A stretch of 64,000 bases of DNA from a virus: IMG/VR virus record IMGVR_UViG_3300029953_000001, one strand, 5' to 3'. The notes beneath the pieces are model-generated. The model was given only the letters and a program-made list of their open reading frames with translations. It was not told the origin of the DNA and made no database searches. Positions 2,782 to 52,302 of this stretch are shown one piece after another; the stretch's first letter is position 1; every line of letters starts with the position of its first letter. The position numbers and the translations under genes are program-made.

Positions 2782-2881
2782 CTTGTATCCCCTTATACCT
2801 TACTCAAGTAGGCAATTATGATTCAACACCTACAAAAGGGGGGAATATTGGTAAAAGTAGGTTATAACCCCCTACCCCCTA

Positions 2882-3541: not shown

Positions 3542-4209
3542 CCGAAGCCGCCTAAACTTGAGTTCTGTATAAGACCTTGGTAGTCTATAAAAGGGACTTC
3601 ATTCCCTTTCTGCAAAATAGTTTGAAATAACTCTTGACAAGAGTGCGGGAATCCCTTAGAAACATAGAGGGGCAACAAACCTCAATCTAGAACGGCTTCG
3701 GAGGCCAGCATGAAATCCACCCCTATTAGCAGGCTTGGGCAGTCGCAAAGCTCTTGTGATTGTGACCGCAGTTGGCAAGCTCCTCATGGATGCCGGTCGA
3801 TGCGCTCCAAGAGTTAGGGTTGCGGACGATAACGCTGTAGGTATGACCGGCTTACCGCATGGCGCGACGGCGCTACTTCGGCCCGCTGGTACAACGCTCG
3901 AATCGAAGACAGCACGGGCCATGAAATCGCCCCTGATGGTTCCCAACTCCCCACCGATCAGGAATGCCGCTGAATTTGAGGGGATGTAACCCATGGGCAA
4001 ATCCACAATCAGCACCTTTCAGCTTTTCGCGATGTTCCCCCGAATACTTGTTCCAAAACACACAAGTGCCCAGTGGAGCTTAGTTTCCACTGGGCACCTA
4101 TGCAGGAGGTAACGATGATGCATAGACTAGGGGTCGTCCAAAACCACAGCCTACAGTAACATAATACTCACAAAAAATGAGTTGATGATTTGTTCTTTCG
4201 TCGTCATAC

Positions 4210-5655
4210 CTAATTAATATTCAGTGAGAAGCGTTTCTTCCCGCTATCCCAAATACGATACCATCCCTTGGCTTCCGCTTCGGATTTCTCATCCATGCCT
4301 GCCTTGACCCTTAGAGCGTACTTGCTTTTACGAACTGAACCGTTGGTGTACGAGTAATCCGGCTTTAACTCCTCTTCGAATGTGAACCCCAGCTTTCCAT
4401 AGAGCCCACCCGTGTGAAACCGATTATCACTAAAGGTGACCATTCGCTTGAATCCCATAGAGCGTAGCTCAGGAAGAGCTAGATGAAGAGCCTTTTCATG
4501 AGGATTCCATGCTTTATATTCATGATTCCAACTAGCCCGATGCCACAGGATGACACCCTCTTCACGTTTCATAAAAACCCATACACCCACAAGTTGGGTA
4601 CCATGGTGGGCAGTCACCGTCAGGCCACCGGATGCGGCTCCGAGGTAATGGTACGCATCTAGAAAGGTTCGAGCTTCAAATGGAGTTTCATGATGGATAG
4701 CAAAAACCGGCTTGATGCGCTTCCCACTCCGGGGTTGAATCATCGAACGTACGAGTGCCTTAACTACATCAGGTTTCTCATTCCACTCATCCTGATAAAT
4801 CTGGAGAAGGCGGGTTGCGCCCTGTTGTAACCACTGAAACTTATCGGCGTCTTTAGACCCTTGAAGGTATCTCTCCGAGTGCCATATCAGTCCATGGTAC
4901 TCAATAGCTAACGAGGCCGAAGGAACGTAGATATCCACTGTATGTCGTCTGGAAAACTGGGGAACCAAAGAGGACAAAGGGACTTCCATCTCTACCGGAA
5001 CGTGGTATTCGTTACGAATGAAATCGGCAATATGGGTGGCTGGAGAGTTCGCCATCATACCCATTCGGTGACATCCACAGGACTTAATCAGTCCTTGTAC
5101 GAGGGAGTCGCCGTAAACCACTGACGTGTTCCCGCAATCACAAGTCACATTCCACTGGTACTTCCCCCCCTGACCCACTCCATGTACAGTCGTTGTCGTA
5201 AGAGCGCCGAACCGCTGCCCTTCTATGTCCTTGAAGTTAGCGAGTGTGGCTTGTTCTCTCATGTAACAACCACATGAAGACGTGTGTCCACTATTCAAGT
5301 GAGCAGTGGATACCAGTGCCATGCCCCCACATTCACAAGAGCACTGCCAGAATGACTGACCGTTATACGACCCCTCGTTACGTTGGTGGTCTAATGTTAT
5401 AACTAGAAGCCGTCCGAATTTCCTGCCCACCATACTGGGGATACGATTCTGGCGACTCTCTTTTACCAGACAACCACATGACTTGGATAACCCTCGCAGC
5501 ACAGAAGCCCACGATATTTCTTTTGTTCCACCGCAGGAGCACACGAACCGATACTTCGTATGAGACACCCTAAGATTAAGAGGTAGGTTCTCCTGCTGAG
5601 GGTCAAGACGAAGTCGGTTCCACTGCATACCCAGCATATCCATACTAATACCCAA
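4210..5655 (-). CDS. Putative homing-type endonuclease: three tandem Zn-ribbon repeats, a Vsr-like PD-(D/E)XK nuclease domain and a C-terminal domain
   Basis: Repeats FVCSCGG..SKSCGC, WQCSCECGG..SSCGC and WNVTCDCGN..KSCGC. Nuclease-like TVDIYVPSASLAIEYHGLIWH...RYLQG...D. Free-standing, immediately downstream of the capsid gene terminator. Paralogous architecture at 33462..34397. Confidence 0.45.
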   Translation of the reverse strand: MGISMDMLGMQWNRLRLDPQQENLPLNLRVSHTKYRFVCSCGGTKEISWASVLRGLSKSCGCLVKESRQNRIPSMVGRKFGRLLVITLDHQRNEGSYNGQSFWQCSCECGGMALVSTAHLNSGHTSSCGCYMREQATLANFKDIEGQRFGALTTTTVHGVGQGGKYQWNVTCDCGNTSVVYGDSLVQGLIKSCGCHRMGMMANSPATHIADFIRNEYHVPVEMEVPLSSLVPQFSRRHTVDIYVPSASLAIEYHGLIWHSERYLQGSKDADKFQWLQQGATRLLQIYQDEWNEKPDVVKALVRSMIQPRSGKRIKPVFAIHHETPFEARTFLDAYHYLGAASGGLTVTAHHGTQLVGVWVFMKREEGVILWHRASWNHEYKAWNPHEKALHLALPELRSMGFKRMVTFSDNRFHTGGLYGKLGFTFEEELKPDYSYTNGSVRKSKYALRVKAGMDEKSEAEAKGWYRIWDSGKKRFSLNIN

Positions 5656-5711: not shown

Positions 5712-6668
5712 TTAGTTCTCGCCTACGTTCGGGGAAGCGAAGCGACCACTTACAGTCAGACGCTGTACGCCGGACGGGTTGAAGACCAAGAAGCCGAGGT
5801 TCTCGAAGATGGAGAAACCAATCTGGCGGAGGTCAGGACGGTCTGCACTCATGACGGTTAGCGGGATACGCTCTGGGATGACACCGAGGAACTCAGCGTC
5901 GGCCAGAATGTACACGCAGCCATAACCAACCTTACGGGACTGGAGCAGAGTTGCGCCCCACAGGTAACCCATAACACCGGTCTTCAAGAGCTTGCGCTGT
6001 GTCTCACGGTCGATGTTCTGCTGTGTCCACTTGAGCAAGTCAGTGTAGTCGCGGGGGTTGAAGAAGCAGAAAGCCACCGAGAGGTCGTGACGCTGAACCT
6101 GACCGAAACCATCAGCCATGCTGTTGATGTCGATAGGAGCCGAAATCGCGATGTCCACGTTGTACACGGGGTCGGTCTGCGCCTTGCCTGCTGCGGCAGT
6201 TGCAACCGCGTCAAACAGGGTGAAAACGTAGCCGTCTTCTGCTGCACCGACTTCAGCCTTCGCCAAGTTAAGCGAACGGGCCACGAGGTCGAAGCGGCGT
6301 TCCTTAATCTGGGTGATAGGAATCATCGGGTTGGATACGATTTCGAACGTCGGAACCGTAACACGCTTCGGCTTTGTCACGCGAACGATGTCACCACCTT
6401 CTTCACCGACGACGAAGGCTTCCACGAAGCTACCACCGGGGGCCGAGCCCACAGTCATAGCAGCAGTGTCAAATTCCTTATCGTAGATGGGCAGAGCACC
6501 ATCGGGCAAAGTCTCAACCATCAGCGCCTTACGGGCGATGGACATATAGTCACGACGACGACGAAGTGACGGGCCAAGCGAGGCAGCAAGCTTCTGACGA
6601 CCACCGGCAGTCTTAAGCAACTGTCCGAGCATCGCGGTCTGCTGCTGTGTGCGAGAAAGATTAGCCAT
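5712..6668 (-). CDS. Putative major capsid protein (318 aa)
   Basis: Strong RBS AAGGAAAAGGAAT-ATG; a strong terminator follows. Gene order acidic scaffold-like protein, small head protein, this gene matches a head module. No diagnostic motif, so the call is positional. Confidence 0.4.
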   Translation of the reverse strand: MANLSRTQQQTAMLGQLLKTAGGRQKLAASLGPSLRRRRDYMSIARKALMVETLPDGALPIYDKEFDTAAMTVGSAPGGSFVEAFVVGEEGGDIVRVTKPKRVTVPTFEIVSNPMIPITQIKERRFDLVARSLNLAKAEVGAAEDGYVFTLFDAVATAAAGKAQTDPVYNVDIAISAPIDINSMADGFGQVQRHDLSVAFCFFNPRDYTDLLKWTQQNIDRETQRKLLKTGVMGYLWGATLLQSRKVGYGCVYILADAEFLGVIPERIPLTVMSADRPDLRQIGFSIFENLGFLVFNPSGVQRLTVSGRFASPNVGEN

Positions 6669-6692: not shown

Positions 6693-7154
6693 TTAGAGCA
6701 GTGAAGCTACGCCAAGCCAAGGCTCAGCAGCGGAAGGAACATGGGTGCAGATACCGACCGCAGGATTGCCAGAAAGCGTTCCCTTGTTGGTGGTGTCGGT
6801 GTACAGACCAATGTTGCTGTGAGTGGTTCCACCACAGTAGATGTACTTACCGATAACAAACGTCGGCGAGTTCACTGTGTCGTAAGACTCAGAGTTGACG
6901 TTGCCCTGAAACAGGGCGCGGACAATAGGAGCCTTCTTGGAACCGGAGGGACCAATCGCACCAGCGAATTCGCCGGGACCATTGAGCAGGACGCCAAAGG
7001 GCACAAGTGCCGCAGCGGTGTCAGTGTCGGCGGGAACGATGACAGCTTCCAGCGAGGTGTTGACAGCAGGAACCTTGAGGGCAACAATCTTGCCACCGAG
7101 GTACCCAGCCGCAGTCAACGTCTGCTGGTCAGTGCCGGGGTCACCCGTGAGCAC
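6693..7154 (-). CDS. Hypothetical head-module protein (153 aa; decoration- or scaffold-like by position)
   Basis: Immediately upstream of the capsid candidate on the same strand and frame, separated by TAA and an RBS. Confidence 0.35.
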   Translation of the reverse strand: MLTGDPGTDQQTLTAAGYLGGKIVALKVPAVNTSLEAVIVPADTDTAAALVPFGVLLNGPGEFAGAIGPSGSKKAPIVRALFQGNVNSESYDTVNSPTFVIGKYIYCGGTTHSNIGLYTDTTNKGTLSGNPAVGICTHVPSAAEPWLGVASLL

Positions 7155-7607
7155 AACGTCAGGCGACCACTGAGAGTCGTTCTGTCCGTAATACCTATGT
7201 GTTATCCACTTTCGTGGAGGTAGGGCATTTCTGCCTACCTCTTATAGTTCACTATTTCCTATAAGAGCGGACTATCGCATCACCGTTTAGGTGCCCTCTC
7301 GCTTAGTCTCTCAGGCTGCACAGTAACTGTTTGTTACTTGCTTGCCCCCTGTTGGCATCTCAGCTTCCAAGTCGATCAGAGTGGGTTTATACTGGCCTAG
7401 CTATTAAGTCAGTTTAAGAGCCATTTTGACTTTTTCTCCATGTAGAAGTTTTGAATTAGCCCTCACTCCAATTCTTAGTCGAGGAGACCGACCGTTGAAC
7501 TATAGAGCAGTGACTTACTTCACATACCTATGGGGTGGGTATTGGGAGAAAGCTAGACTTACATTAAATTTTAATTTTATGCCCGTTTTTCTGTCCATAA
7601 TAAATAA

Positions 7608-8306
7608 GTGAACTACCTATACCTTAGTATGTTCATATACCTAGTTACCAACACGATAAACGGCAAAGCCTACATTGGAAAAACCTCGAAAACCGTCAAG
7701 GGACGGTGGGAAACCCACCTTCAGAACGCAAAGATGGGGTTGCCCTACCATCTATACCGAGCTATTCGAAAGTATGGGGTTGACGCTTTTCATGTACAGA
7801 CTATCGCAGAATGTAATAACTCAGAACAGTTGAGCGAGTTGGAGAAGATGTGGATTTTGTTACTAGGTACTCACAGCACCAAATATGGGTACAATATGAC
7901 CTATGGAGGTGAGGGGGTTACCGGAACTGAGGAGGTGCGTGAAAAAATTAGACAAAAGGCCATGGGTCGGATTCCGTCTAAAAAACAGAGAGCAGTTGCG
8001 TCAGCCCTCTTCAAGGGTAAGCCAAAGCCTATAATTCAGCGGAAGAAAATGGCTGCTTGGTGGGATGAGACCACACCTATAGGCCAAGCTAGACGTAGTA
8101 AACAGGCGTTGGTAGCCCGTCGCGTCAATGACATTGAAAACAAGAAACTGAAGGACTACCTATGCCCTGACTGCGGGAATGAGTTTGAGCAAGTTACCAA
8201 AGGCGTATACGGTGGGCACCGTAAGGCGTGCCTACACTGGAAGAGAATGTCTGAGATTGTCGAAGAAGAAATTGGGCTGACCCTAGACGAGGTACTAGAC
8301 TCCTAG
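7608..8306 (+). CDS. GIY-YIG homing endonuclease (I-TevI/Seg-like)
   Basis: YIYLVTNTINGKAYIGKTS...R..H..YGYNMTYGGEG, then a basic C-terminal DNA-binding region ending in a CPDCG Zn finger. Plus-strand island in a minus-strand module. Confidence 0.8.
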   Translation: MNYLYLSMFIYLVTNTINGKAYIGKTSKTVKGRWETHLQNAKMGLPYHLYRAIRKYGVDAFHVQTIAECNNSEQLSELEKMWILLLGTHSTKYGYNMTYGGEGVTGTEEVREKIRQKAMGRIPSKKQRAVASALFKGKPKPIIQRKKMAAWWDETTPIGQARRSKQALVARRVNDIENKKLKDYLCPDCGNEFEQVTKGVYGGHRKACLHWKRMSEIVEEEIGLTLDEVLDS

Positions 8307-8403
8307 CGAAGTTTTTTCTTTATCGAGTTCCCGCAAAGCTTGGTATCTACTACTGTGAGGGCGAAAGCCCAGCTTTACGTCTAGTCTAGTCAAAAGGAAA
8401 TAT

Positions 8404-8673
8404 ATGAATCAGCCATCCGATGTGTTCTACACGGTCGTCTACGAGGACAACTCTATCAAGAAGCCACACCGCCGCCAGAAGTTCACTGGCTATGTAACCA
8501 CAAAAGACATGAGGGCACTTTTTGGTGCCCCTTCACCCCAGTTGTTCAGGAATTGGGATGAGGCCAAGGAGCTACTGGACATTGCCAACCGGGACTTGGG
8601 AGTAAAGGGAGTAAATCCGACGTTCTCCGTCTTCATCATGACCTTCCGGCTCACCGAGCTGGGTGGTCGGTGA
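8404..8673 (+). CDS. Hypothetical protein (89 aa)
   Basis: RBS AAAGGAAATAT-ATG. Travels with the plus-strand endonuclease cassette. Confidence 0.4.
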   Translation: MNQPSDVFYTVVYEDNSIKKPHRRQKFTGYVTTKDMRALFGAPSPQLFRNWDEAKELLDIANRDLGVKGVNPTFSVFIMTFRLTELGGR

Positions 8674-8852
8674 CGCGGGGGAGAACCGCATCCGGGATGC
8701 ACGCCGCGTAGGCTATCAAGGATTTGGTGAAGTCGAGTTTCCGTTCGCAGTTGAGCGACGTTCACCGTGATGCATATGAAGACCCTGACTGTGAGTCGGC
8801 TGAGGGCTCTTATGAGAAAGACATTCTGGACGACTAAGGAGAAACAAACATT

Positions 8853-9143
8853 ATGGGTTTTTGGAAAGACACGCTCAGGGACAGCCTTCGTCCCGTATCA
8901 CTTCTCTTCTCAGCACTTGGTATCCTCTTGCCGTACTACCTCCTCGTATTTATCGCACCCCAGCACTGTGTGAGGATTGCTGTCGGGGTTCTCATCGCTA
9001 ACCTTGTGGGCTATGCCGAAGGCCGGAGCAGAAACGATAGGAAGAAGTCGGAGAAGGCAGTATGTTCCCGGTTCCACAGGGAAGATGACGATGATACCTA
9101 TGACGATAACTGCCCTTGCTGTCACGACCGTCCCAGCGTATAA
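8853..9143 (+). CDS. Hypothetical membrane protein (96 aa) with a Cys/Asp-rich tail
   Basis: RBS AAGGAGAAACAAACATT-ATG. Two hydrophobic helices; C-terminal DDDDTYDDNCPCCHD. Confidence 0.45.
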   Translation: MGFWKDTLRDSLRPVSLLFSALGILLPYYLLVFIAPQHCVRIAVGVLIANLVGYAEGRSRNDRKKSEKAVCSRFHREDDDDTYDDNCPCCHDRPSV

Positions 9144-9200
9144 GGCAAAAGAAAACGCCCCGATACTCTCGGGGCGTTCCTGTTTCTGTTGTACAGAGGG

Positions 9201-11405
9201 TTAGTTGTCGTCGGAGCCGAAAAGTGCCTGACCGATGTCGAACTTAGGGGCACCAACGGTCGGGCCACCAGCGGTACGAATCTTCTTCAGGATGGGAGCG
9301 GAAGCAGCCTTGGGAAGTTTAAGCTCGTTGGTCGAGTCCTGCTTCACACGCTTGGCACCCTGCTCTTCGGGGGTGATGTCCTCGATGGTCTCTGCCCACA
9401 GGTCGCCCGAGTGGTCGTTCTCATTGTCGCGGCCTTCACCGGTGGCTTCGTCGGACTCAAAGTGGTTGGCAGCTTCCCCGGTTGAGGACGGAACAATGTC
9501 GAACCCGTCAACACCGGCAGCTTCCTTCAGACCAGCGATGAGAGAGGCAAGCGGATCACCGTCAGAGCCCTGCAAGGAGAACATGTCGTGCATGTCGCCC
9601 ATGCCGTCGTCGTCCATCGAGGCTCCAAGGTTGCCAGAGGGAGCGAAGAAATCGTCCTCACCAGCAGCAGACTTCTCTTCACCCTCGTTCGCCAAGGAAG
9701 CGGCCTTCTCTTCCATCGCGTCGGCGTCGAATACCTTGGAGAAGTCGAGTTCGTCACCCTCTGGGTCACCTTCCACTACTTCGCCGTCGAGACCTTCGAT
9801 TTCGCCTTCGCCTTCGCCTTCCATACCACCAAGTGCCTCTTCCTCACCCTCAAGTTTGGCGAGGTCAAGTTCCTCATCCCCCTCTTCAAGGATTTCACTT
9901 TCGATAGCCTTGATAGCAGCCTGAGCTTCGTCAATCTTCTCTTCGAGAACCTGCTTCTTCTCGTCGGTCAGAATTTCTGTTGCTTCACCCTCTGGGTCGC
10001 CGGGAACTTCTTCGGGAAACTCAGCCGGAGCTTCGATTTCACCTTCGACAGGTGCAGCAGCTTCCTCTACAGGAGCGGCCTCTGCGGGAGCAGCGGTCTC
10101 TTCAGCAGGAGGGAACTCGCCGTCAGCCTTCTTGGTGGAAGCCTTCTTGCCCTTGCAGTCGGCGTTGGTGCAGCCCTTGCAATCCTTGCCTTCGCAAGCG
10201 GTCTTCTTGGCAGCAGCCTTCTCGGTCTTGCCATCGGACAAATTCTGGGTCTGACCCGGCTTCTCGCCAGCGTCGGGACGCTCAGCAGCCTTGGATGCGT
10301 CAATCTCCTTCGGCTCAGAGCCGTCGCGACCGTCATCATAGGTGCCTTCCTGAGGTCCGTTTTCTTTACGGTCGTCAGCCTTCTTGACGTTGGCGTTCTT
10401 CGCATCACCACTGAGTTCCGAGGACACAGCCGACTTCTCGGACTTGAGAACGGACGGGTCTTCGAGCAAGTCGTTCAACTCGACCTTGTGGACTTCCTTG
10501 AAAGTCTCAGCAAGCTTCTGATAGTGCGCGTTGATAGCGGTCTGACGGAGCATAGCCTTGATGGCTTTTGTGCTGTTGCCCGAAAGAAGAGAAGCCGCGA
10601 GAGACTTCTGTACAGAAGTCGGTGCCGTGGGAAGCATAGTCTTGGCGATAGCCCAAGCTGAAGCTACACGGGTCTTTGCTTCCTTCGAAATTGCCTCCCG
10701 CTTGTTCTTAACCTCAGCCAGCTTTTCCTTCAGCGAGAGGTTGTTCGTATTTGCCATGTGAGTATCGCCTTTCTTCAAGTGAGAGGAGTCAGCAGCAGAC
10801 CCCTTCTTATCAGAAGTTTCATAGTTGTTTTTTTGTTTGGTTTGTGCATTTTTGTTGCTTGCCACAGGTGCTTCGAGTGGTTCAGCCGGTGGAGCATCCA
10901 TCGCCGCGTCGGGCATTGGCTCCAAAGCTGTATCACCTTCTGGCGTGGCAACAGATGCATCCGCTGCCGGAACTTCGGGGGTGGGGGGTACTTCCGGCAA
11001 GGCCGGTGCCTCGGGAGCCATCGGAGCAGCGGGAGCCGCGAGGGCATCAGGAGCCATAGGCATGTCGGGGGACATCATGTCCATACCCGCATCATCACCA
11101 TCGGCGATAGTTGCAAACTGTGAGTCGAGAGCGTTTAGCTCAGTCTGTACATCATCAGACCAACCCGAACCTTTGAACTTCTCCCACTCGGAGATAAGCT
11201 GTACCCGTTCACGCATAGCGCGAATCTCGGTTTCGAGTTCCTCACGTTTATCGGTGAGCAAGCTGAACTGCTCCATACCCTCGCCCTGAGGCATAGAGGC
11301 ATCAAGGTCAGCGAATTCGTTATCGAGCATGTCCAGTTCAGCGAACTTAGCCTTGACGTTCGCGATAACCTTGAGAATTGATTGTGTTGCTTCTTTGTTT
11401 GCCAT
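9201..11405 (-). CDS. Acidic low-complexity protein (734 aa), scaffold or internal virion protein candidate
   Basis: Extreme Glu/Ala/Asp/Pro content, coiled-coil-like N-terminus, Cys-rich segment CEGKDCKGCTNADCKG. Position between portal-side genes and the capsid. Confidence 0.45.
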   Translation of the reverse strand: MANKEATQSILKVIANVKAKFAELDMLDNEFADLDASMPQGEGMEQFSLLTDKREELETEIRAMRERVQLISEWEKFKGSGWSDDVQTELNALDSQFATIADGDDAGMDMMSPDMPMAPDALAAPAAPMAPEAPALPEVPPTPEVPAADASVATPEGDTALEPMPDAAMDAPPAEPLEAPVASNKNAQTKQKNNYETSDKKGSAADSSHLKKGDTHMANTNNLSLKEKLAEVKNKREAISKEAKTRVASAWAIAKTMLPTAPTSVQKSLAASLLSGNSTKAIKAMLRQTAINAHYQKLAETFKEVHKVELNDLLEDPSVLKSEKSAVSSELSGDAKNANVKKADDRKENGPQEGTYDDGRDGSEPKEIDASKAAERPDAGEKPGQTQNLSDGKTEKAAAKKTACEGKDCKGCTNADCKGKKASTKKADGEFPPAEETAAPAEAAPVEEAAAPVEGEIEAPAEFPEEVPGDPEGEATEILTDEKKQVLEEKIDEAQAAIKAIESEILEEGDEELDLAKLEGEEEALGGMEGEGEGEIEGLDGEVVEGDPEGDELDFSKVFDADAMEEKAASLANEGEEKSAAGEDDFFAPSGNLGASMDDDGMGDMHDMFSLQGSDGDPLASLIAGLKEAAGVDGFDIVPSSTGEAANHFESDEATGEGRDNENDHSGDLWAETIEDITPEEQGAKRVKQDSTNELKLPKAASAPILKKIRTAGGPTVGAPKFDIGQALFGSDDN

Positions 11406-14341: not shown

Positions 14342-15307
14342 TTATATGTCCTTCACTAGAGGAATAGGTAGTTGGTGTTTCCTCTTTGTTTCTTGCATCT
14401 TCGCCATTACATCAGGGCTAGAGGCCGGAGAGTTGCCGCCATAACGTAGCTGGTTAGTCTTGATACGTTTCTTCTCTATGTCGGGGCGACATGATGGGCT
14501 TAAGCCGCCAAATCGCTCTAGTATGGTCGCATTCTTCTTAGCTTGTAGTGTCAAATTGAGAATTGGGTTGGTTACCCCATACTTAGCCAGCATGGTGGTT
14601 TCTGCTTTTTGTTTTAACTCTGGGTCGGCGAAAGTACGTCTGTTTCTCCAGTGTGCCGAGCATTCGTAGAAGGTCTTTGAACAGCACGGCTTCTCATTAT
14701 TTCCCAACAAGAACAGAGCTTGAGCACCACAACCATAGCCACAAGCTGCTTCCTTTTCAATCATCTTTACCTTCATGCTCTTCTTATGCTTACTGTAGGC
14801 TGAGCATGAACCTTGATGGTGTGAACAACAAGGGGTTTCCTTCTTACCTACAAGGAATTTGGCGGGGTTGAAGCAGCCGTACTCACACAGCAGCCTATCA
14901 TCAGGAGAAATTGGGTGTACACGGGTCTTTGCCCCCTTGCGCCTACCCGTGTTACCTTTTTCTTTGGCTATACGTCCCGCACGACCGGGGTCAGAGAGTC
15001 CCTTATCATTGATGTATTTGAAACCTCCCTGACCCCCCTCATGGAGGTTGTAGCATAGTTGGTCTTGACAGGCCGATTGGAGGAGTTCTACCTCTTTAGC
15101 ATATGCCTCGGATGCAAGGGAGAATTGGGTTATAACTTCTTTGGTAAAGTTATGGCGACCGTACTTCTTAACAGCGCGTTTGATGACAATACCAGAGCCA
15201 AGATAATCATCGTTGGGATTATTAGTCTCGTGAACCCCAAGGTAATACCGAGAGTTGAGAAGGTTGGTAATTTTGTAGACCGTAAAAACACTCATGCGAC
15301 TCTCCAA
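14342..15307 (-). CDS. GIY-YIG homing endonuclease with Cys-rich C-terminal region
   Basis: FTVYKITNLLNSRYYLGVHETNN...YLGSG...R...YNLHEGGQGG, then multiple CxxC-like clusters. Confidence 0.7.
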   Translation of the reverse strand: MESRMSVFTVYKITNLLNSRYYLGVHETNNPNDDYLGSGIVIKRAVKKYGRHNFTKEVITQFSLASEAYAKEVELLQSACQDQLCYNLHEGGQGGFKYINDKGLSDPGRAGRIAKEKGNTGRRKGAKTRVHPISPDDRLLCEYGCFNPAKFLVGKKETPCCSHHQGSCSAYSKHKKSMKVKMIEKEAACGYGCGAQALFLLGNNEKPCCSKTFYECSAHWRNRRTFADPELKQKAETTMLAKYGVTNPILNLTLQAKKNATILERFGGLSPSCRPDIEKKRIKTNQLRYGGNSPASSPDVMAKMQETKRKHQLPIPLVKDI

Positions 15308-25434: not shown

Positions 25435-26769
25435 TCAAGTTTGGATTCTGCCGAACGTTACCGTCCGACCAATAGGAATCTCCGCCTTGTTCTCCCATGG
25501 AGCCTTACCCGGCTGGGTCAGAGCGTTGAACAGAGGCTCACCGTCACCCTTGAGATTGTTCGGGTCTTCACCCTGAAGGTAGTTCTTGCCGACGACTGGA
25601 TTGAATAGGGTGGGCATACCTGTGTTGATGGGAATGAGGTATCGAGTATCGCCCCAAGGCAGCAGGGACGTGTTGAAGTCCTGCTGTAATAGAATGCCAC
25701 GCGGGGACTTATAGGTCACACCACTGATAACCAGACGCTCACCGTTACGACGGACGATGAGGTCACCGTCCTGCACGATGGGCGTGTTGGTAAGGTAACT
25801 ACGACTCTCGCGGGTTGCCTTGATGCCACCACCCTCATCCAGTTCACGAGTGATAGCGGAGTCTGGCGGAACGTACGTGATGTCGTAGGGGCCAAAATAT
25901 CCTCCGACGATACCAATCTCGAAGCAAATCTTGCAGCCAGTCTTGGCTTGACCTAATCCACCTTCAGACCCTCTGCAACCGCACAACTTACCCCGCGTTT
26001 TGCGAAATAAGATGTAGGCAGGCTCCCCTATCTGTTCGAACAGCCACTCGTTGCGGCGAACCATCTCTGCATACTCCCACGTCATCTGGTCAACTTCCTG
26101 CGTGTTGACAATCTTGGTGCCGGGGTGACCGGGCTTATGCAGTTCCTCGCCCACCGGTCCCAAAGGAACGATGCAATAGAAGGTGCGGGTCATACCGGTG
26201 TAGATGTCCACATAGTTGATGAGCTTGTTGTAGACGACCTTGAACTCCTTCACGCCGGAGTAGTCAGCCTTCCACACGACACCATTATTCACCGCAGCCA
26301 AGTCAGTGACGTAACCGCCCTGCTTCAACTGATTGTCCATGGGGAGCCACACGGTGCGGTCGAGACCTTGAACCTCAGCCGGGGTGAGGGCAACATCGTC
26401 TACGTACACTGTCACGTCCTGAGGACGAATAGAGACGAAGGGGCGTCCGGTCACGACATCAGCGTATGGAGTGTCGGGGATTCGGAAGCCCCACCTTCCC
26501 ATGATTCCCTTGTCTACCCAGTCGGGCTCCTGAACAATGTACGTGACCTGCTGGAGAGCTACTTGATCCCGGTAGAAATGACCTGACCATGGATTAACAT
26601 TTAGTTTGTGCCAGTTCACCGGGGCATCAAAGGCCCGGTAGATATTGTAGCCATGAGCAGCGTCGGGGTCGTCCTGCCACCAGAGGTCGCGGGAGCCGAC
26701 GTAACTGGAGTTCATAACTATTAGGGTTTGAATCATACTATTTACCCTCGCTGAGGCGGATGACATCAA
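25435..26769 (-). CDS. Hypothetical structural protein (444 aa)
   Basis: Complete ORF. Internal CGCRGSEGG..GCKIC Cys cluster. Confidence 0.45.
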   Translation of the reverse strand: MMSSASARVNSMIQTLIVMNSSYVGSRDLWWQDDPDAAHGYNIYRAFDAPVNWHKLNVNPWSGHFYRDQVALQQVTYIVQEPDWVDKGIMGRWGFRIPDTPYADVVTGRPFVSIRPQDVTVYVDDVALTPAEVQGLDRTVWLPMDNQLKQGGYVTDLAAVNNGVVWKADYSGVKEFKVVYNKLINYVDIYTGMTRTFYCIVPLGPVGEELHKPGHPGTKIVNTQEVDQMTWEYAEMVRRNEWLFEQIGEPAYILFRKTRGKLCGCRGSEGGLGQAKTGCKICFEIGIVGGYFGPYDITYVPPDSAITRELDEGGGIKATRESRSYLTNTPIVQDGDLIVRRNGERLVISGVTYKSPRGILLQQDFNTSLLPWGDTRYLIPINTGMPTLFNPVVGKNYLQGEDPNNLKGDGEPLFNALTQPGKAPWENKAEIPIGRTVTFGRIQT

Positions 26770-27091
26770 TGGGAGTCACAGGAACTCTGTGCAAGTACCG
26801 CCATATTCGAACATCCTTAGCACTAGACAGGGAACCCGGTAGGAGTCGTTTGACCAAATCGAGGTCTTTCTTTATAAACTGGGTACCATGGATGCGGAGA
26901 ACTATGGGGGCTCCCCCTGTTTTCCCCGCCTTGTTTTTGGCGAACCACTCAGCAACAGGTAGTGTGAAGTAGCTTCTTTCAACCAACCCCTCTCGAATAA
27001 TCTCAGGCAGCACACTGTCGTCAGTTCCGTGATACAAGAACTCAGGAACTACGGACACCCCTTGTTTTAGAAACTTACTTTTCCAGTGCAT
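26738..27091 (-). CDS. Small protein with an H-G-T motif (FLYHGTDDSVLPEIIREGL); possible minimal ADP-ribosyltransferase/Tpt1-like fold
   Basis: The N-terminal H-G-T core followed by a hydrophobic ..GL.. segment resembles the first strand of H-Y-E ADP-ribosyltransferases. Weak evidence. Confidence 0.3.
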   Translation of the reverse strand: MHWKSKFLKQGVSVVPEFLYHGTDDSVLPEIIREGLVERSYFTLPVAEWFAKNKAGKTGGAPIVLRIHGTQFIKKDLDLVKRLLPGSLSSAKDVRIWRYLHRVPVTPIDVIRLSEGK

Positions 27092-27101
27092 ATCGCTCCT
27101 A

Positions 27102-27887
27102 CTAAGGTACTTGGGTAGTGCAAAAAGAGCAGTTCGGATTAATCAGACCACGATTGGTGTGCCAACGCACATGCTTGGCCTTTATAAGACTGCCGCTGGC
27201 AACACTAGCTGCGGCGGCTCTCTGCTTCGCTTCGCGAGAGCCTGACTTGCCTCCGAGGCTGTGAACTTCACGGGACATGCGGGTACGCATCTCCTCAGGG
27301 TGTTCGTCAGCCCACTTCCTACAAGCCTCGATACGAGTAGATTCATCTTGAAGGGCACGTTTGGTTTTTATTTTCTTCACTGAGTCTTCTGTGAGAAACG
27401 AGCCACCCTGCTCCTGTCTTGCTTGCTCAACAGCAGCTTTACGCTTCTCCTCTTGTTCAGCCGAACGCAGGAACACAGGGTTACCTACTTCCTTCAATTT
27501 GGCCTTGGTCTCTTCAGACATAGTGCCGGTGAACCCTTCTCCACCCCGGCAGATGTTGTAGCCGATTTCTGGATTGCGGGTGTCGTAAAGGGCGATGAGT
27601 AAACGTTCGAGTCGGTCTAGCTCTTCTTTGGTCTCGATACCCTCGAAAAGAGGCTCTATCGACCAAACCTCCTTGGGGTGCTTACGCATGGAGTTGAAGA
27701 GATGGGATGAACCTCTGTTTCGCTTTGCATGAGAAAATTTGTCTTGAAGGTACTTCTTCAAGTTATTGCCCTTATGCTGGCCGATGTAAATCTTCCCTGT
27801 GATTGAGTTAGTGATGGCATAGATGTACATGAAAATGGACTCCTCTTGTAGGAGTCCATAGTTGGGTTTCGATTTGTTATAAAACAC
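27102..27887 (-). CDS. GIY-YIG homing endonuclease
   Basis: MYIYAITNSITGKIYIGQHKG...R...GYNICRGGEG, then a basic C-terminal region. Confidence 0.75.
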   Translation of the reverse strand: MFYNKSKPNYGLLQEESIFMYIYAITNSITGKIYIGQHKGNNLKKYLQDKFSHAKRNRGSSHLFNSMRKHPKEVWSIEPLFEGIETKEELDRLERLLIALYDTRNPEIGYNICRGGEGFTGTMSEETKAKLKEVGNPVFLRSAEQEEKRKAAVEQARQEQGGSFLTEDSVKKIKTKRALQDESTRIEACRKWADEHPEEMRTRMSREVHSLGGKSGSREAKQRAAAASVASGSLIKAKHVRWHTNRGLINPNCSFCTTQVP

Positions 27888-32065: not shown

Positions 32066-33481
32066 TTACTCCGCGTCCTGAAAGTAGTCGAAGCTGGCTG
32101 CGGTACTGCGAACCTCATCCAGCGTGAAATCCTTCTTCAGTTCGCCGTTGAGGAACACGGTCTTGAGGTAGTTGCCGTAGCTGTCCTCTTCCGTGGTGTC
32201 GATAGTACGCCAGCCGCCGTCGCTGTTGAACAGGTTGAAGCGGCCACCGATGGATGCCTTCGAAGAATCCGTCTTCGGGTTCTTGAAGACCGGACTCCAC
32301 TGCCCTGCCCGGTTGATGGCCGAGCACTTGATAGCAAAGCGCATCGTGTCGCGGTTCTGCTGCTGCAACAGGGCACCGCCCATGCCGTAGCCCCAGTTGT
32401 CCATCGACCAACCCGACCGGGTGAGGGAGGAGTTGATGCGAAGGATGTTCTGATAGTTCACGCCGTCGCCCTGAATCGCACGAATCTGTGCCGGGAGAAC
32501 CTTGTAGCCCTTGGCGTTGGTCTCGAAGCCGAACTTCTCCGCAACTGCGTTGAAGATGTCTTCGAGGACAACCACAGGGTCACCTGAGTCCGGGCGAAGC
32601 ACGACAGTACCGTCCCGACGCAGAACCTTCTCACGAAGCTGGTTGCCGAAGATTTCAGCGACCGCGTTGTGCGTGTCGTAGCTGTCAACCACGCACGCGA
32701 GAAGCGCAGTGGGCGACTTGTCGAGCATGTTCTCGTAGGCATCACGCTCGTTAGCCTGACCCCATGACGTGACCGTGCTGTGTTCCATAGCAGGGATAGA
32801 GAACCCCGGCATATCCTTGGCTCCGTAATAGTCACGTAGCAGTATGGCCGCTTCCATCGTGTCTGAGCCCATGAAGTTGACCAGATGTGCTGCTCCGCCG
32901 ATAGCCGCCGATTCTTGCGAGGAGACGCCACGGGCTCCAAAGTCATGCAGCTTGAACGGCAAGCCAGCAGGAGTTCCGGTGCGAACCAAGTCCTTGCCAA
33001 TTTCCTGCTTGATGTGCCATGACAGGGTGCCGACCGTGATGGGGTACCATGTTCCTCGGAGGATGATGGTCTCCGCCCAGTTTGTCAGCCAAGGAAACTC
33101 ATCATCCGTGTTCTCAATGGTCAGCAGGGCGTTCTTCACAGAAACAACTGTACCCTCCGGCACCGCACGAATCTTGAGGGGAAGGCGACCGTCGTGCTTC
33201 TCCAGCAACCTGAGCCAACCCGTCGTATTGAATACCTTATCGGAGCCAAAGTGAGCCGCCGCAAATGCTTGAGCCTCGTCTACGTCTTCCTTAGTGAAGA
33301 CCTTACCGACCAAGTAGGTCTTGAGGGTGTACTGAAGACCGAAGAACATCGTGTCCTTCCAAAAACCTCCGCGAGACATAAGGTGGGAGTAAATAGTTCG
33401 AGTATCTGGGGGGTACTGAAAATGGTGGGAAAGCTTGTAACTGTCCGTTGTCAGTAGGGGGTTAACTCTCAGTTTTTGCAC
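32066..33481 (-). CDS. nadV: Nicotinamide phosphoribosyltransferase (NadV/NAMPT)
   Basis: N-terminus LLTTDSYKLSHHFQYPPDT, typical of NAMPT. Length 471 aa. Internal GARG/DSYD segments. Confidence 0.8.
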   Translation of the reverse strand: MQKLRVNPLLTTDSYKLSHHFQYPPDTRTIYSHLMSRGGFWKDTMFFGLQYTLKTYLVGKVFTKEDVDEAQAFAAAHFGSDKVFNTTGWLRLLEKHDGRLPLKIRAVPEGTVVSVKNALLTIENTDDEFPWLTNWAETIILRGTWYPITVGTLSWHIKQEIGKDLVRTGTPAGLPFKLHDFGARGVSSQESAAIGGAAHLVNFMGSDTMEAAILLRDYYGAKDMPGFSIPAMEHSTVTSWGQANERDAYENMLDKSPTALLACVVDSYDTHNAVAEIFGNQLREKVLRRDGTVVLRPDSGDPVVVLEDIFNAVAEKFGFETNAKGYKVLPAQIRAIQGDGVNYQNILRINSSLTRSGWSMDNWGYGMGGALLQQQNRDTMRFAIKCSAINRAGQWSPVFKNPKTDSSKASIGGRFNLFNSDGGWRTIDTTEEDSYGNYLKTVFLNGELKKDFTLDEVRSTAASFDYFQDAE

Positions 33482-34397
33482 TTGTTTTCTCCTTCAAAAA
33501 AGCCTTTACATCATTTATGAAGAACGGGATTCTCACCATTTGGTATCCGTTATCTTCCGCCCACTGGTCTTTCAACTTGTCCAAACTTCGTATGCGTTCC
33601 AAGTCCTCGGGCTTCTTCCCTGTCAATACCTTGTAATGCTGTGCTCCATCAAATTCAATGAGTAGCTTCATCCCCTCAACACAGAAGTCATACCGTAGAT
33701 GGCGACCTGACTTTGGGTTTATGAGTCCGGGGAAACACTTCTGTGGTTTGTACTTCCAACTCCACGCTTCCAAACACTTTCTAACTTCCTCCTCGCCCCA
33801 CGAATAGTACCGTGAAAAGCATTTTGGACAACCTGCACCCCGAAGATGATTACTCGCCAGTTGTTTAAAGTCCCCATGCACCTTACATGTAATGGTAACC
33901 GATTTCAAAGAGTAGGTGTAACCTAGTCGGTCATAACCATAGCGGTCACCGTGGAGCCTTCGAGCTTCGATGATGAAATCTTCGGGGGACTTACGCTTTT
34001 TATCGCTCCTCTGTACTATCCCACATTTTGGACAGCCACACCCATTCAAATGGTTATTCGGGGTCATCTCAAACCCCCCGTGAACCGGACAAAGAATTGT
34101 TACTTTGTCCAAAGTTGTGGTTCGGTATACAACGTTGGAATAGTCGTATAGATCACCATGCTTCTTCCTTGCTTTCTCGATGAACTTCTCAGTCGTTGAT
34201 GTTGCTTCCTTCCGAGCACATTTAGGACAGTTCTGGCCCACTCTGTGACATGAGGGGAGTTGCCAAAACACACCATGTTCTCGACACACAATTTCTACCT
34301 TGCTACGTTTGTTTTTGTACACCAACCGGGAGTAATCATACCGCTCTCCGTGTACCTGTTGCACTGCTACCAAATACTCCTGTGTCGTCATACCCAC
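33462..34397 (-). CDS. Putative homing-type endonuclease: three YDYS/Zn-ribbon repeats plus a Vsr-like PD-(D/E)XK nuclease domain
   Basis: Repeats ..YDYS.V.Y...V.I.C..HG.F......H..G.GCPKC three times. C-terminal YDFCVEGMKLLIEFDGAQHYK...R.....D.....G. Same architecture class as 4210..5655. Confidence 0.45.
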   Translation of the reverse strand: MGMTTQEYLVAVQQVHGERYDYSRLVYKNKRSKVEIVCREHGVFWQLPSCHRVGQNCPKCARKEATSTTEKFIEKARKKHGDLYDYSNVVYRTTTLDKVTILCPVHGGFEMTPNNHLNGCGCPKCGIVQRSDKKRKSPEDFIIEARRLHGDRYGYDRLGYTYSLKSVTITCKVHGDFKQLASNHLRGAGCPKCFSRYYSWGEEEVRKCLEAWSWKYKPQKCFPGLINPKSGRHLRYDFCVEGMKLLIEFDGAQHYKVLTGKKPEDLERIRSLDKLKDQWAEDNGYQMVRIPFFINDVKAFLKEKTSAKTES

Positions 34398-34601
34398 CTC
34401 TAACTAAGGGGTGGGTATTGCAAACAGTAACTTAGTTTATTCTCAAATACCTATTCCTTGACACGTAACCCAGCCCTAGCAGCCCTGTGCCCAGCAGCAG
34501 CAAGGAGGAAGGCTCAGGAGTCGGGGCTGGGATGGGGACAGCGAAGGTGTCCAGTGGCGTGACTGACAGGCTTACGATCCCCCCTTCGGGTGTGTCCCCA
34601 C

Positions 34602-35009
34602 TCATGAATGAAATCCAGTCCAGCCCGTCCGCCTCAAAGCCCTCCGAAGTGCGTGTAAGTCCAGCGTATAGGGAATACTCCAGACCGCGTTGTAGCCCGT
34701 AAATGCAACCCCCGTCGCCGCCTCAAACCACGGGCTGGAAGCAGTCAACACGTTGTTGTTGAATGTCGTACCGGGGGCTGACAACACCATGGAGGCAGTA
34801 TGCTGGGCATCCGATATCACACCCGTGAGTCCTGTGATAATTCCGGCTGAATTGGTTGTGAAGGTTCCGCGTCCTGCGAGGGGTAGATAGGGGATACCGT
34901 CAGGCGTGTCGGCTGAATTGAAGAAAAAAGAATACTGACTGGCAGAGGCTGCTGGAGTTCCTAGTACAACCATCAAGGTCAAGGCAAAAGAAAGTAGGGC
35001 GGTTTTCAT
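34602..35009 (-). CDS. Secreted hypothetical protein with Sec signal peptide (MKTALLSFALTLMVVLGTPAASA)
   Basis: Classic n-h-c signal with an ASA cleavage site. Confidence 0.45.
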   Translation of the reverse strand: MKTALLSFALTLMVVLGTPAASASQYSFFFNSADTPDGIPYLPLAGRGTFTTNSAGIITGLTGVISDAQHTASMVLSAPGTTFNNNVLTASSPWFEAATGVAFTGYNAVWSIPYTLDLHALRRALRRTGWTGFHS

Positions 35010-35056
35010 TGTTTTATCCCTTTCATTATTTTATTTAGTTCCCAAGAAACCTCTGG

Positions 35057-36058
35057 TTATTTCAATCCTTCCGCTGCGAGTTCCTTGGGCGTCATGTGCG
35101 TGTAGGTGACGTTCATCCGGCCAACCTCGATGGTGTCCCACACGTACAGGCCGAAGTGCTTGTACACGACGGGGAAGACACTCTCCCGGTGCGTGTCGAT
35201 GAGCAGTTCTGCCTTCATCTGGTCGATGGGAAACCACTTAACCTCTTCAATGTCATCGCCAGCAATCGCATTGAGCGAGGGTGACTCCGCCGCGAAGACG
35301 AGCGACTTGATTTGGTCGGGCTCCCCTTTCCACCGCCAGTCAGGGATGAGAGCAGAGCCGATGAACTGAGGTTCATTCACCACGAGGCTGGTCTCCTCCA
35401 TGGCTTCACGGGCAGCGTCGTACTCGTAGCTGGGGGTGTAGGGCTCAGAGAAGCCACCGATGAACCGCCACTGCGTCTCACCCGGCTTGCGACCGAGCAG
35501 GAACAGCGTTTTGGTGTCGTCGTTCTCCGGCTTGTGGTAAATCACCACGTCCACCGTCGCCTTCACAGCAGGACGGATGTTGGTCATGGCGTAGATGACG
35601 CCAGCACGGAACTCCGGGGACTCCATGACCGTGTTGGTAATTTTCGCACGGATGGTGGTGCCGCTGATGCCGTCGAGCGTGTTGGGGAGAGTCAGTTCAA
35701 TCGGCTTGTACGCCCCATGGTAGTGCGGTACGAAAGAATCGCGAGAGCCGTACAGCGTCACGTCGCCGTAGTCCACTACGTCACGAATAGCCCTGTCCAA
35801 GTTCCGCGACCACGTTGCATCTTCCTTGGTGTCGGTGAGGGGGAAAATCATGAAGTCGGGATACGCAGCCTGAACCATCGCCTTGCGAGTCTCGAAGTCG
35901 AGGGGGTTGTTGTAGGTCGAGCCAATGGACTTCTGACCGAGGAACAGAATGACCTTGCTGTGCCGTGCCCTTACTTCATCGAACAGGGCTCTGTGTCCAG
36001 CGTGAAGAGCATCGACTTGGCAGCGTGCGACAAGAACGCCGTAGTTAGGCTTTTGCAT
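35057..36058 (-). CDS. natV: Bifunctional NMN adenylyltransferase / Nudix hydrolase (NatV-like)
   Basis: N-terminal nucleotidyltransferase HxGH (VLVARCQVDALHAGHRALF). C-terminal Nudix box GGFSEPYTPSYEYDAAREAMEETSL. Confidence 0.75.
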   Translation of the reverse strand: MQKPNYGVLVARCQVDALHAGHRALFDEVRARHSKVILFLGQKSIGSTYNNPLDFETRKAMVQAAYPDFMIFPLTDTKEDATWSRNLDRAIRDVVDYGDVTLYGSRDSFVPHYHGAYKPIELTLPNTLDGISGTTIRAKITNTVMESPEFRAGVIYAMTNIRPAVKATVDVVIYHKPENDDTKTLFLLGRKPGETQWRFIGGFSEPYTPSYEYDAAREAMEETSLVVNEPQFIGSALIPDWRWKGEPDQIKSLVFAAESPSLNAIAGDDIEEVKWFPIDQMKAELLIDTHRESVFPVVYKHFGLYVWDTIEVGRMNVTYTHMTPKELAAEGLK

Positions 36059-50644: not shown

Positions 50645-51286
50645 TCACCCGTTGTTTCTCGGCCTCCGTGGTGCAGGTCGGCAGGACTTGCTGACCGGTC
50701 TTACGGATACCCGCCATGACGACTGCAAGGTGGTGCTCAGCGTAAGGATGCTGTCACGCACCGTGCTCATGACGTGGGTATCGTTGGCCGCATCCGTTGC
50801 ACGGCTGGAATCAGGGTAGATGAGTCCGGTACCAGTGCGGTCAGTGCGATGACCGACAAGCTTCACGCGACTCTTGTGGTAGTCGCTGCTAACCCACACA
50901 GTACCACGTTCCTTCAAACCGGGCAGAGTCCATACATGGGCACCCCACAGGAATCCCAAAAATTCCGAAGATTCCTCGCTGGCAGGAGCATAGTCCCTAT
51001 AAGTCGCTGCCATCACGTTATTATATGCCGGGGCATCGTCAGGGTGCAGCCACATGTTGGCGACGAGGAGGTTGTCCTTGTGGATTTCTCCGAAGGCGTT
51101 GGCAAGCATAGCAATAGAGAACACCTTAGGCTCCATAGCATCGAGGGGGAAGACATAGCTGTGGTAGCCCCTATCGGAGGCAAGGAGTTTAGGAGCGACA
51201 GCGAGAGTTACCCCTGCGGCACCGGCTGTGAGAAGGAACTTACGACGGTTCATAGATACCTCAATCCTTGATGCTGTATTGTACAC
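50645..51286 (-). CDS. Tat-signal protein (213 aa), third paralogue
   Basis: MNRRKFLLTAGAAGVTLAVAP, then MWLHPDDAPAYN. The C-terminal tail looks low-complexity, so a frameshift or alternative end is possible. Confidence 0.45.
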   Translation of the reverse strand: MYNTASRIEVSMNRRKFLLTAGAAGVTLAVAPKLLASDRGYHSYVFPLDAMEPKVFSIAMLANAFGEIHKDNLLVANMWLHPDDAPAYNNVMAATYRDYAPASEESSEFLGFLWGAHVWTLPGLKERGTVWVSSDYHKSRVKLVGHRTDRTGTGLIYPDSSRATDAANDTHVMSTVRDSILTLSTTLQSSWRVSVRPVSKSCRPAPRRPRNNG

Positions 51287-52228: not shown

Positions 52229-52302
52229 TGGTGCTCCCGGCAGGGTTCGAACCCGCGTCTCTTAGGTTAGAGCTAAGGGCACAGCCGCTATACCACGGGA
52301 GC
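52229..52302 (-). tRNA. tRNA with anticodon CUA (reads UAG amber), compact 74 nt with encoded CCA
   Basis: GCTCCCG-TG-GTAT-AGCGGCT-GTGC-C-CTTAG-CUCUAAC-CTAAG-AGAC-GCGGG-TTCGAAC-CCTGC-CGGGAGC-A-CCA. Perfect 7-bp acceptor, perfect 5-bp anticodon stem, U33 and A37 in place. Confidence 0.5.

Follow-up and report, generated by a model that had tools for sequence, protein, structure and literature searches.

The closest described counterpart of the genes reported here is the NARP2 pathway of vibriophage KVP40, in which two phage-encoded enzymes, Nampt (NadV) and Nmnat (NatV), boost nicotinamide adenine dinucleotide (NAD+) during infection and abolish the defence exerted by type I Thoeris and DSR2 (10.1101/2024.02.11.579819). 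The starting substrates of NARP2 are phosphoribosyl pyrophosphate (PRPP) and nicotinamide, not ADP-ribose pyrophosphate (ADPR-PP) (10.1101/2024.02.11.579819; PMC13464706), and 94% of phages with a KVP40-type Nampt also encode Nmnat (10.1101/2024.02.11.579819). The KVP40 enzymes are credited to Lee et al. (2017) where Osterman et al. cite their characterization (10.1101/2024.02.11.579819). According to Iyer et al., 33% of jumbo phages carry NadV, which is also present in every phage that encodes NadM (PMC9503650); the NadV-NatV pathway itself is a published one (10.1101/2024.02.11.579819; PMC9503650). Here, we describe a pair of genes of these two families, together with the DNA that separates them, in IMG/VR virus record IMGVR_UViG_3300029953_000001, of which a stretch of 64,000 nucleotides (the window) was analyzed.

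We consider it highly probable that the pair, which occupies positions 32066 to 36058 of the window, constitutes a phage-encoded NAD+ salvage route of the NARP2 (NadV-NatV) type, ordinary among large phages. As in KVP40, the same two enzyme families are phage encoded with the same predicted chemistry, and the order of the nicotinamide mononucleotide (NMN) adenylyltransferase (NMNAT) and Nudix domains is that of KVP40 NatV. The system differs from that of KVP40 in belonging to another phage, with a probable host in another phylum (Acidobacteriota) and from another habitat, and in being known here from sequence alone. No match came from a search of 50,697 phage records for DNA nearly identical to the region; the phage is not a known isolate. 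Proteins of the window were found on a contig of 431,749 bp, which places the phage among the jumbo phages, with a genome of 432 kb or more. The system is known, its setting is new and divergent, and it would not surprise a specialist; the small new points are (i) a re-spaced Nudix box, (ii) a junction between the two genes that is a hotspot for endonucleases, (iii) a PEP-CTERM gene that was captured and then broken, and (iv) an apparent exchange of NadV alleles.

Identity of the two enzyme genes

Five consecutive open reading frames (ORFs) on the minus strand, encoding 333, 135, 57, 311, and 471 amino acids (aa) and spaced by 47, -4, 34, and -20 nt, fill the interval between the stop of the 471-aa gene (32066) and the start of the 333-aa gene (36058), which are exactly the limits given in a preliminary description of the window. 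That description had placed a NAMPT-type gene and an NMNAT-Nudix fusion gene on the same strand about 1.5 kb apart, and both were found there, separated by 1575 bp. Both enzyme assignments were borne out by hidden Markov model (HMM) and profile searches, predicted structure, inspection of motifs, and conserved synteny.

The 471-aa protein, NadV, has the two-domain architecture of NAMPT above curated thresholds, with an N-terminal domain (Pfam NAMPT_N PF18127, 109.8 bits, cutoff 25, E = 1e-31) followed by a type II phosphoribosyltransferase barrel (Pfam NAPRTase PF04095, 179.2 bits, cutoff 20.8, E = 1.5e-52). It also exceeds the cutoff of NCBIfam NF006629 (574.8 bits, cutoff 405) and matches phrog_448, "nicotinamide phosphoribosyl transferase," with an E-value of 1.7e-153. 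Like the NAMPTs of rat and human (2g95, 2gvg) and of Xanthomonas (7yqo), to which it can be aligned over ~97% of its length with E-values of 1e-124 to 1e-131 (PDB sequences: 7yqo 1e-131; rat 2g95 2.8e-126; rat and human entries ~1e-125), it retains every active-site residue checked. The comparison was made through a phmmer alignment to the 491-aa rat NAMPT 2g95, in which chain numbering equals native numbering. We take the active-site residues of the rat and human enzymes to be Y18, F193, R196, D219, H247, R311, D313, G353, D354, G383, G384, R392, K400, K415, and K423, and their equivalents in NadV are, in the same order, Y15, F181, R184, D207, H234, R296, D298, G338, D339, G368, G369, R377, K385, K400, and K408. 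Among these are the autophosphorylated histidine (H247; H234 in NadV) and the aspartate of nicotinamide selectivity (D219; D207 in NadV). NadV differs from mammalian NAMPT in lacking an insertion of ~10 residues after residue 40, and from the human, rat, and Xanthomonas enzymes in being phage encoded. Homologues were found in 2017 phage records, the best at ~50% identity, and the gene starts with GTG preceded by a GGAG Shine-Dalgarno sequence. The 471-aa ORF is thus a bona fide NAMPT-type gene.

For the 333-aa NatV-like protein, single-sequence searches recovered the Nudix domain (Pfam NUDIX PF00293, 46.2 bits, cutoff 21.1), placed the N-terminus just under the threshold of the cytidylyltransferase-like family CTP_transf_like (20.4 bits, cutoff 21), and gave only 2qjt (E = 0.005) and 2qjo (E = 0.15) when phmmer was run against PDB. 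Because this support for the N-terminal half is weak, the two-domain identity needed evidence from structure and profiles. A database search yielded 747 homologues, many of them named "bifunctional NMN adenylyltransferase/nudix hydrolase" by JGI, and an alignment and profile (A1) was made of 52 family members. Against PDB sequences, the A1 profile matched 2qjt (4.5e-16, profile positions 6-299) and 2qjo (1.7e-11), and also the archaeal NMNATs 1f9a (2.4e-7), 1ej2, and 4yp5. An AlphaFold2 (AF2) model built from A1 had a mean predicted local distance difference test (pLDDT) score of 85.9, and its top six Foldseek matches in PDB were the NadM-Nudix structures 2qjt, 2r5w, and 2qjo, aligned at full length with E-values of 4e-15 to 2e-12. 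Next in the list came many single-domain Nudix structures, which are the best domain-level matches. The TM-score between the model and the NadM-Nudix structures was ~0.45, which we attribute to the two domains being oriented differently to each other in the model. From these structural and profile matches, we conclude that the 333-aa protein is a divergent NadM-Nudix, or NatV-type, enzyme, for which the bifunctional proteins of Francisella tularensis (2qjt/2r5w) and Synechocystis (slr0787, 2qjo) are the best full-length matches.

The motifs that the NatV-like protein shares with the Francisella and Synechocystis enzymes are HxGH, ISxTxxR, and the REx2EE glutamates of the Nudix helix. In HxGH (H19-A-G21-H22), the two histidines and the glycine are conserved in at least 90% of the 52 homologues; in ISxTxxR (I131-S-G-T-T-I-R137), R137 is invariant and G133 is conserved in at least 90%. 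The catalytic REx2EE of the Nudix helix is intact (R217-E218-A-M-E221-E222), and G201, G202, E212, E218, and E222 are invariant in A1, with E221 at 90% or more. In the AF2 model, HxGH opens the helix at 20-32 and ISGTTIR the helix at 133-140, the positions at helix N-termini that are expected of HIGH-type nucleotidyltransferases. Compared with the solved NadM-Nudix enzymes, the inter-domain linker is shorter (an alignment gap of ~40 residues), and the loop before HxGH is two residues longer. A good Shine-Dalgarno sequence (GGAGG) lies upstream of the ATG.

An ancestral gene pair split by an insertion

When IMG/VR was scanned with the A1 profile, 80 loci were returned, of which 76 encode a NadV homologue on the same strand as the NatV homologue and downstream of it, the linkage that is also kept in the window. 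The two matches are at most 200 bp apart in 49 loci, 201-600 bp apart in 15, and more than 600 bp apart in 12 (median 118 bp). The pairing is far from chance, and the ancestral layout is NatV followed directly by NadV. Since the genes are usually less than 200 bp apart in relatives, the 1.5 kb between them in the window is an insertion, consisting of an endonuclease gene and a frameshifted PEP-CTERM gene, and it left both enzyme genes undamaged.

The same NatV clade, at 34-45% identity, includes proteins of Tunturi_5, LR745206, LR756500, LR756502, and LR756504, all with jumbo genomes, and Tunturi_5 and the huge-phage assemblies have the same gene order and strand as the window. In Tunturiibacter phage Tunturi_5 (PP885688), a cultured jumbo phage, gp218 ("cytidyltransferase") and gp217 (NAMPT) are 118 bp apart, and in the assemblies LR756502 and LR756504, NadV comes directly after NatV. 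While these three pairs are adjacent (gaps of 118 to ~230 bp), that of the window is split by the endonuclease gene and the PEP-CTERM pseudogene. The publication that describes the Tunturi phages is silent on NAD genes. Va3, a KVP40-like phage, has no annotated NatV closer than 4 kb to NadV, whereas in the clade of the window the two genes are ancestrally adjacent.

Three relatives with NatV proteins 68-74% identical to that of the window show how the junction varies. In L011, which lies on a 435-kb contig and also shares the upstream UvrD helicase gene (NatV 74%, NadV 79.5% identical), the junction holds one 122-aa gene with no family match; in L013, it holds a YqeY gene; and in L014, the two genes are only 38 bp apart. 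Compared with that of the window, NadV is 79.5% identical in L011 and 44% identical in both L013 and L014. This incongruence with the identity of NatV suggests that NadV alleles are exchanged between phages and that an allele may have been swapped by recombination inside a conserved NatV-NadV frame.

The window is one of the ~16% of loci with a sizeable insert at the junction. Its own inserted genes had no tblastn match in any of the 80 IMG/VR loci, and the endonuclease gene is missing from the same site in all relatives examined. Other endonuclease genes lie in or near the junction in L063 (HNH/EndoVII-like), L108 (GIY-YIG, opposite strand), and L107 (phrog_4645), and the junction is therefore a recurrent landing site for homing endonucleases. 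In L118 (UViG_3300009008_000023, 7044-9454), NadV itself is split into residues 1-142 and 147-459 by ~1 kb carrying an HNH endonuclease ORF; an intron-like insertion and a split gene are both conceivable. L112 (6917-7354) and L089 (6927-7352) have an additional small Nudix gene of MutT type between NatV and NadV.

The preliminary description had a secreted protein gene and a homing-type endonuclease gene between the pair. The endonuclease stands, whereas the "secreted protein" turned out to be the 5' half of a frameshifted PEP-CTERM gene. A Sec signal peptide (MKTALLSFALTLMVVLGTPAASA/S) opens the 135-aa ORF, which continues into a domain of ~110 aa that ends at a premature stop after the frameshift, and the 57-aa ORF consists of the PEP-CTERM sorting signal only (TPEPSSLLLLGTGLLGLGYVSRNR; PF07589, 31.2 bits, cutoff 20.7; TIGR02595, 25.1 bits, cutoff 16). 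Three-frame translation identified the two ORFs as one gene broken by a shift into the -1 frame, such that the signal peptide and the PEP motif, transmembrane helix, and basic cluster lie in different frames and not in one polypeptide. A reconstructed 192-aa fusion matched intact PEP-CTERM homologues of 176-201 aa by BLASTP (24-32% identity over 76-88% of length), which align across both halves; the one homologue contig checked is bacterial, with chemotaxis genes present.

Two other origins of the break were considered. Programmed -1 frameshifting was rejected in favor of a plain frameshift mutation, as no slippery heptamer of the form X XXY YYZ is present in the zone where the two ORFs overlap; the 57-aa ORF also has no Shine-Dalgarno sequence upstream. 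A sequencing or assembly error was rejected because three independent assemblies agree over the region at 100% identity, from which we take the frameshift to be fixed; the 135-aa product is recorded on 22 contigs. We read the split gene as most likely either a pseudogene created by the frameshift or a gene for a truncated secreted protein. It is a bacterial-type, host-like gene for a PEP-CTERM (exosortase-sorted) surface protein that was captured by a jumbo phage and then broken.

The 311-aa protein matches phrog_559 ("HNH endonuclease," 6.3e-56), phrog_681 (4e-42), and phrog_9084 ("homing endonuclease," 4.5e-20), with weak Pfam matches to DUF4379, DUF723, and DUF559 and no match among PDB sequences. 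It carries three treble-clef zinc-finger repeats resembling DUF723/DUF4379 and, at the C-terminus, a nuclease region resembling DUF559/Vsr, and the 3' end of its gene overlaps the start of NadV by 20 nt. Its family and its sporadic presence at an otherwise conserved site are those of a homing endonuclease, and it would thus qualify as homing type. It has no significant similarity to the phrog_559-type gene at 4210-5655 and is not a paralogue of it. The window carries at least five homing-endonuclease-like genes in 64 kb, of HNH/phrog_559 type and GIY-YIG type, and is thus heavily laden with selfish elements.

RNA folding predicted a hairpin of -21.7 kcal/mol (z = -4.2) that follows the PEP-CTERM remnant and precedes the endonuclease gene, and none of 200 shuffled sequences folded as well. 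In its core stem, 34410-34418 pairs with 34390-34398, and the 3' arm holds the Shine-Dalgarno sequence of the endonuclease gene (GAGG) and the first bases of its AUG at 34391. The hairpin may occlude the ribosome-binding site and repress translation, or it may insulate transcripts. The features of the locus, and those discussed further below, are listed in Table 1.

Table 1. Positions of the features discussed, in window coordinates, with the evidence for each
Feature	Position	Strand	Evidence
NadV, 471 aa	32066-33481	-	HMM, PDB matches, active-site residues
NatV-like NMN adenylyltransferase/Nudix, 333 aa	35057-36058	-	AF2 model, Foldseek, profile vs PDB, motifs
NMNAT domain of NatV-like protein	~aa 1-160 (nt 35579-36058)	-	
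Nudix domain of NatV-like protein	~aa 164-303 (nt 35150-35569)	-	
C-terminal tail of NatV-like protein, poorly modelled	aa 304-333	-	
PEP-CTERM gene, 5' part, 135-aa ORF	34602-35009	-	Three-frame translation, intact homologues
PEP-CTERM gene, 3' part, 57-aa ORF	34432-34605	-	PF07589, TIGR02595
RNA hairpin in the gap between PEP-CTERM remnant and endonuclease gene	34380-34427	-	RNA folding vs shuffles
Free-standing homing-type endonuclease gene, 309-311 aa	33462-34397	-	phrog_559, phrog_681, phrog_9084; weak Pfam
Tpt1/KptA-like mini ADP-ribosyltransferase-fold protein, 117 aa, outside the pair	26738-27091	-	phrog_5470, AF2, Foldseek
Homing-endonuclease-like genes	4210-5655, 7608-8306, 14342-15307, 27102-27887, 33462-34397		

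Predicted NAD+ salvage and alternative readings

In the proposed pathway, NadV would convert nicotinamide and PRPP to NMN, and the NatV-like protein, through its nucleotidyltransferase domain of HIGH type at the N-terminus, would convert NMN and ATP to NAD+. The C-terminal Nudix domain would most likely hydrolyze ADP-ribose (ADPR), or perhaps NAD(H), to AMP and ribose-5-phosphate, a step that would clear the breakdown product and return ribose-5-phosphate for recycling by a PRPP synthetase. The net effect, with the two genes presumably cotranscribed, would be that NAD+ is kept available in the infected cell, and sustained NAD+ is the published basis for evading NAD+-depleting defences (Thoeris, DSR, Sir2-HerA, and SEFIR); by extrapolation from the KVP40 experiments, the pair may confer a similar anti-defence benefit here. 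A preference for PRPP over ADPR-PP is what distinguishes Nampt from Namat, the enzyme of NARP1; for NadV, such a preference is suggested, indirectly, by its pairing with an NMNAT and by the lack of a Prs/Adps-like Pfam match over most of the window. The preliminary description had NAD+ rebuilt both from nicotinamide and from ADP-ribose-type breakdown products; the first route agrees with the genes found, whereas the second would be indirect only, through the Nudix domain and then a PRPP synthetase, an enzyme that was not found in the window.

This last point is one of several that weigh against the salvage reading. The precomputed Pfam hits on record for the called genes, which come from contigs covering most of the window (a 213-aa protein at 50645-51286 is not on record), include no PRPP synthetase, and recycling of ADPR to PRPP would therefore depend on the host. 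The same hits include no Prs/Adps, NadR, PnuC, NadD/E, Sir2, or macro domain; for Adps, the NARP1 partner (a Prs-like ADPR-PP synthetase), this absence applies to most of the window, itself 64 kb out of a genome of 432 kb or more. The NatV-like protein shares only 16-19% identity with the solved NadM-Nudix enzymes, and the NCBIfam NadM-Nudix models (PRK05379 series, cutoffs 354-449) gave at most 45.5 bits (NF003786, cutoff 397), a score so far under the cutoffs that it marks a divergent clade outside the curated equivalog. It is also too diverged to be linked to the KVP40-like vibriophages by tblastn (E <= 1e-3), which did not reach them with NatV although their NadV was found.

Alignment of the active sites held for all NadV residues checked and for HxGH, ISxTxxR, and REx2EE, and it failed for the spacing of the Nudix box, which does not follow the canonical GX5EX7REUXEEXGU. 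In place of the Gx5Ex7RE of the solved NadM-Nudix enzymes, the NatV-like protein has Gx9Ex4RE (G202-x9-E212-x4-R217-E218), with Pro209 at the position of the canonical glutamate, the invariant E212 five residues before R217, and S224 in place of the box glycine (G22 of the Nudix box). The altered spacing is common to the whole NatV clade, and it leaves the Nudix substrate uncertain. Regarding expression, scans for promoter and terminator consensus sequences and searches for repeats over 31.2-37.2 kb found nothing above chance, a result that speaks neither for nor against cotranscription of the pair. The hairpin upstream of the endonuclease gene could partly insulate NadV from transcription through NatV.

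A possible but doubtful alternative leaves the enzymology as it is and gives the pair another main purpose, namely to feed the NAD+ consumers of the phage (ADP-ribosyltransferase [ART]-fold proteins, Tpt1-like RNA repair, and NAD+-dependent ligase) and its metabolism during a long jumbo infection, with evasion of immunity secondary; it is compatible with the NARP2-type reading. NARP2 also increases NAD+ where no defence system is present (10.1101/2024.02.11.579819), and jumbo phages have been reported with genes for both NAD+ synthesis and NAD+ utilization (PMC11662467). The L014 relative encodes a 684-aa DRAT-like ADP-ribosyltransferase (2045-4099; 27.3 bits, cutoff 25) 2 kb upstream of NatV, which puts NAD+ synthesis and use in one neighbourhood. 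Just outside the right end of the window, at ~64560-66245 in window coordinates (L037 5096-6781), lies a second Nudix gene, encoding a 561-aa protein with a C-terminal Nudix domain. Within the window, the candidate for a phage-encoded NAD+ consumer is the 117-aa Tpt1/KptA-like protein, encoded ~5 kb from NadV. It has an invariant LYHGT motif, matches phrog_5470 ("RNA 2'-phosphotransferase," 7e-6), reaches Pfam PTS_2-RNA at E = 0.01, below the cutoff, and has an AF2 pLDDT of 81; its top 18 Foldseek matches in PDB are all Tpt1/KptA.

These fold matches are weak, however (E 2e-3 to 0.15, query TM-score 0.42-0.57), and the protein is a fragment of the fold, spanning only the NAD+-binding ART lobe of Tpt1/KptA without the RNA-binding lobe; no invariant catalytic acid was found in it. 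Two homologue searches gave 3 and 8 relatives, with only ~8 in 1.8 billion representative proteins, two of them inside proteins of 834 and 1686 aa, and with so few relatives, the Tpt1-like assignment stays weak. The window thus holds no demonstrated NAD+ consumer, and the phenotype that has been shown experimentally for a NadV-NatV pair is counter-defence.

The re-spaced box and lost canonical glutamate, together with the low identity to ADPR-hydrolyzing NadM-Nudix enzymes, raise a second alternative, which we think unlikely: that the Nudix domain of this divergent clade acts not on free ADPR but on glycocyclic ADP-ribose (gcADPR)-type signals, NAD-capped RNA, or NAD(H), in which case the fusion would couple removal of the signal or cap to resynthesis of NAD+. 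Iyer et al. suggest that the NadM Nudix domain regulates NAD+ by cleavage and that phage Nudix domains target ADPr-derived signals (PMC9503650). The nearest sequence matches of the Nudix half are nevertheless of the ADPR type (2fml, the ADPR pyrophosphatase 4kyx, and NadM-Nudix enzymes), its "PD(W/R)R" stretch lines up with the PDR(D/S)xRG of ADPR-type Nudix proteins, and positive evidence for another substrate is lacking. The NatV clade of the window is widespread among jumbo phages of soil and peat type. Going further, and with little expectation that it will hold, one could suppose that in this clade the NatV Nudix domain is tuned to immune signals or NAD-capped RNA and that the NatV/NadV junction is a preferred homing site through which host cargo is ferried. 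If so, a single polypeptide would remove a defence signal and rebuild NAD+, and endonucleases would carry genes taken from hosts, the PEP-CTERM gene for example, from one jumbo phage to another.

That either enzyme gene is a decaying, non-functional passenger of an operon broken by insertions, as the 1.5 kb of foreign DNA with its pseudogenized PEP-CTERM gene and the stable hairpin ahead of the endonuclease gene might suggest, is hardly credible, given that each of the two full-length ORFs has intact motifs and a good Shine-Dalgarno sequence, that the region is 100% identical in 6/6 contigs from separate samples, that the insertion spares both coding regions, and that comparable insertions lie beside intact genes in ~16% of related loci. 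The NARP2-type salvage route is the best supported of these readings.

Genome context and host

The phage nature of the window is evident from a major head protein gene (phrog_2522, 5712-6668) and a tail-sheath-like protein of 1180 aa, alongside the UvrD helicase gene and several GIY-YIG and HNH endonuclease genes. The host is tentatively assigned to the Acidobacteriaceae. Only one of the close NatV matches (40% identity) comes from a cultured phage, Tunturi_5, which infects the acidobacterium Tunturiibacter. The PEP-CTERM variant [TVS]PEPSSLLLL was confirmed at 19 or more genomic loci, and 15 of 19 were read as Acidobacteriaceae or close relatives, in a scan that was biased toward the sorting signal.

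Several other features of the window were recorded. A ferritin/Dps-like gene (PF00210) lies at 61994-62470 on the minus strand. Coding density is low over 44-56 kb, and the minus strand carries seven tRNA genes between 46483 and 52302 (three Thr, one Gln, two Ile, and one with a CTA anticodon), several of them unusually long at 82-87 nt. The CTA-anticodon tRNA (52229-52302) is of the amber-suppressor, or "Pyl," kind; TAG ends 9 of 54 larger genes, which excludes genome-wide recoding. A permuted tmRNA was found at 56371-56638 on the minus strand (Rfam RF04321, 85 bits, gathering score 47), for which ARAGORN gave the tag ANSNVALPIAA.

Significance

The locus adds a well-supported, sequence-divergent pair of the NARP2 type from an uncultured jumbo phage, the probable Acidobacteriaceae hosts of which have very few studied phages. 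Its practical value is modest and lies in a divergent NMNAT-Nudix enzyme and a NAMPT for biochemical comparison. For the phages themselves, the tight NatV-NadV unit is conserved across hundreds of environmental large phages, and the junction inside it is a hotspot at which homing endonucleases and cargo genes have inserted. That the supply of NAD+ is a general pressure point during infection by phages is a view that the finding supports and does not change.

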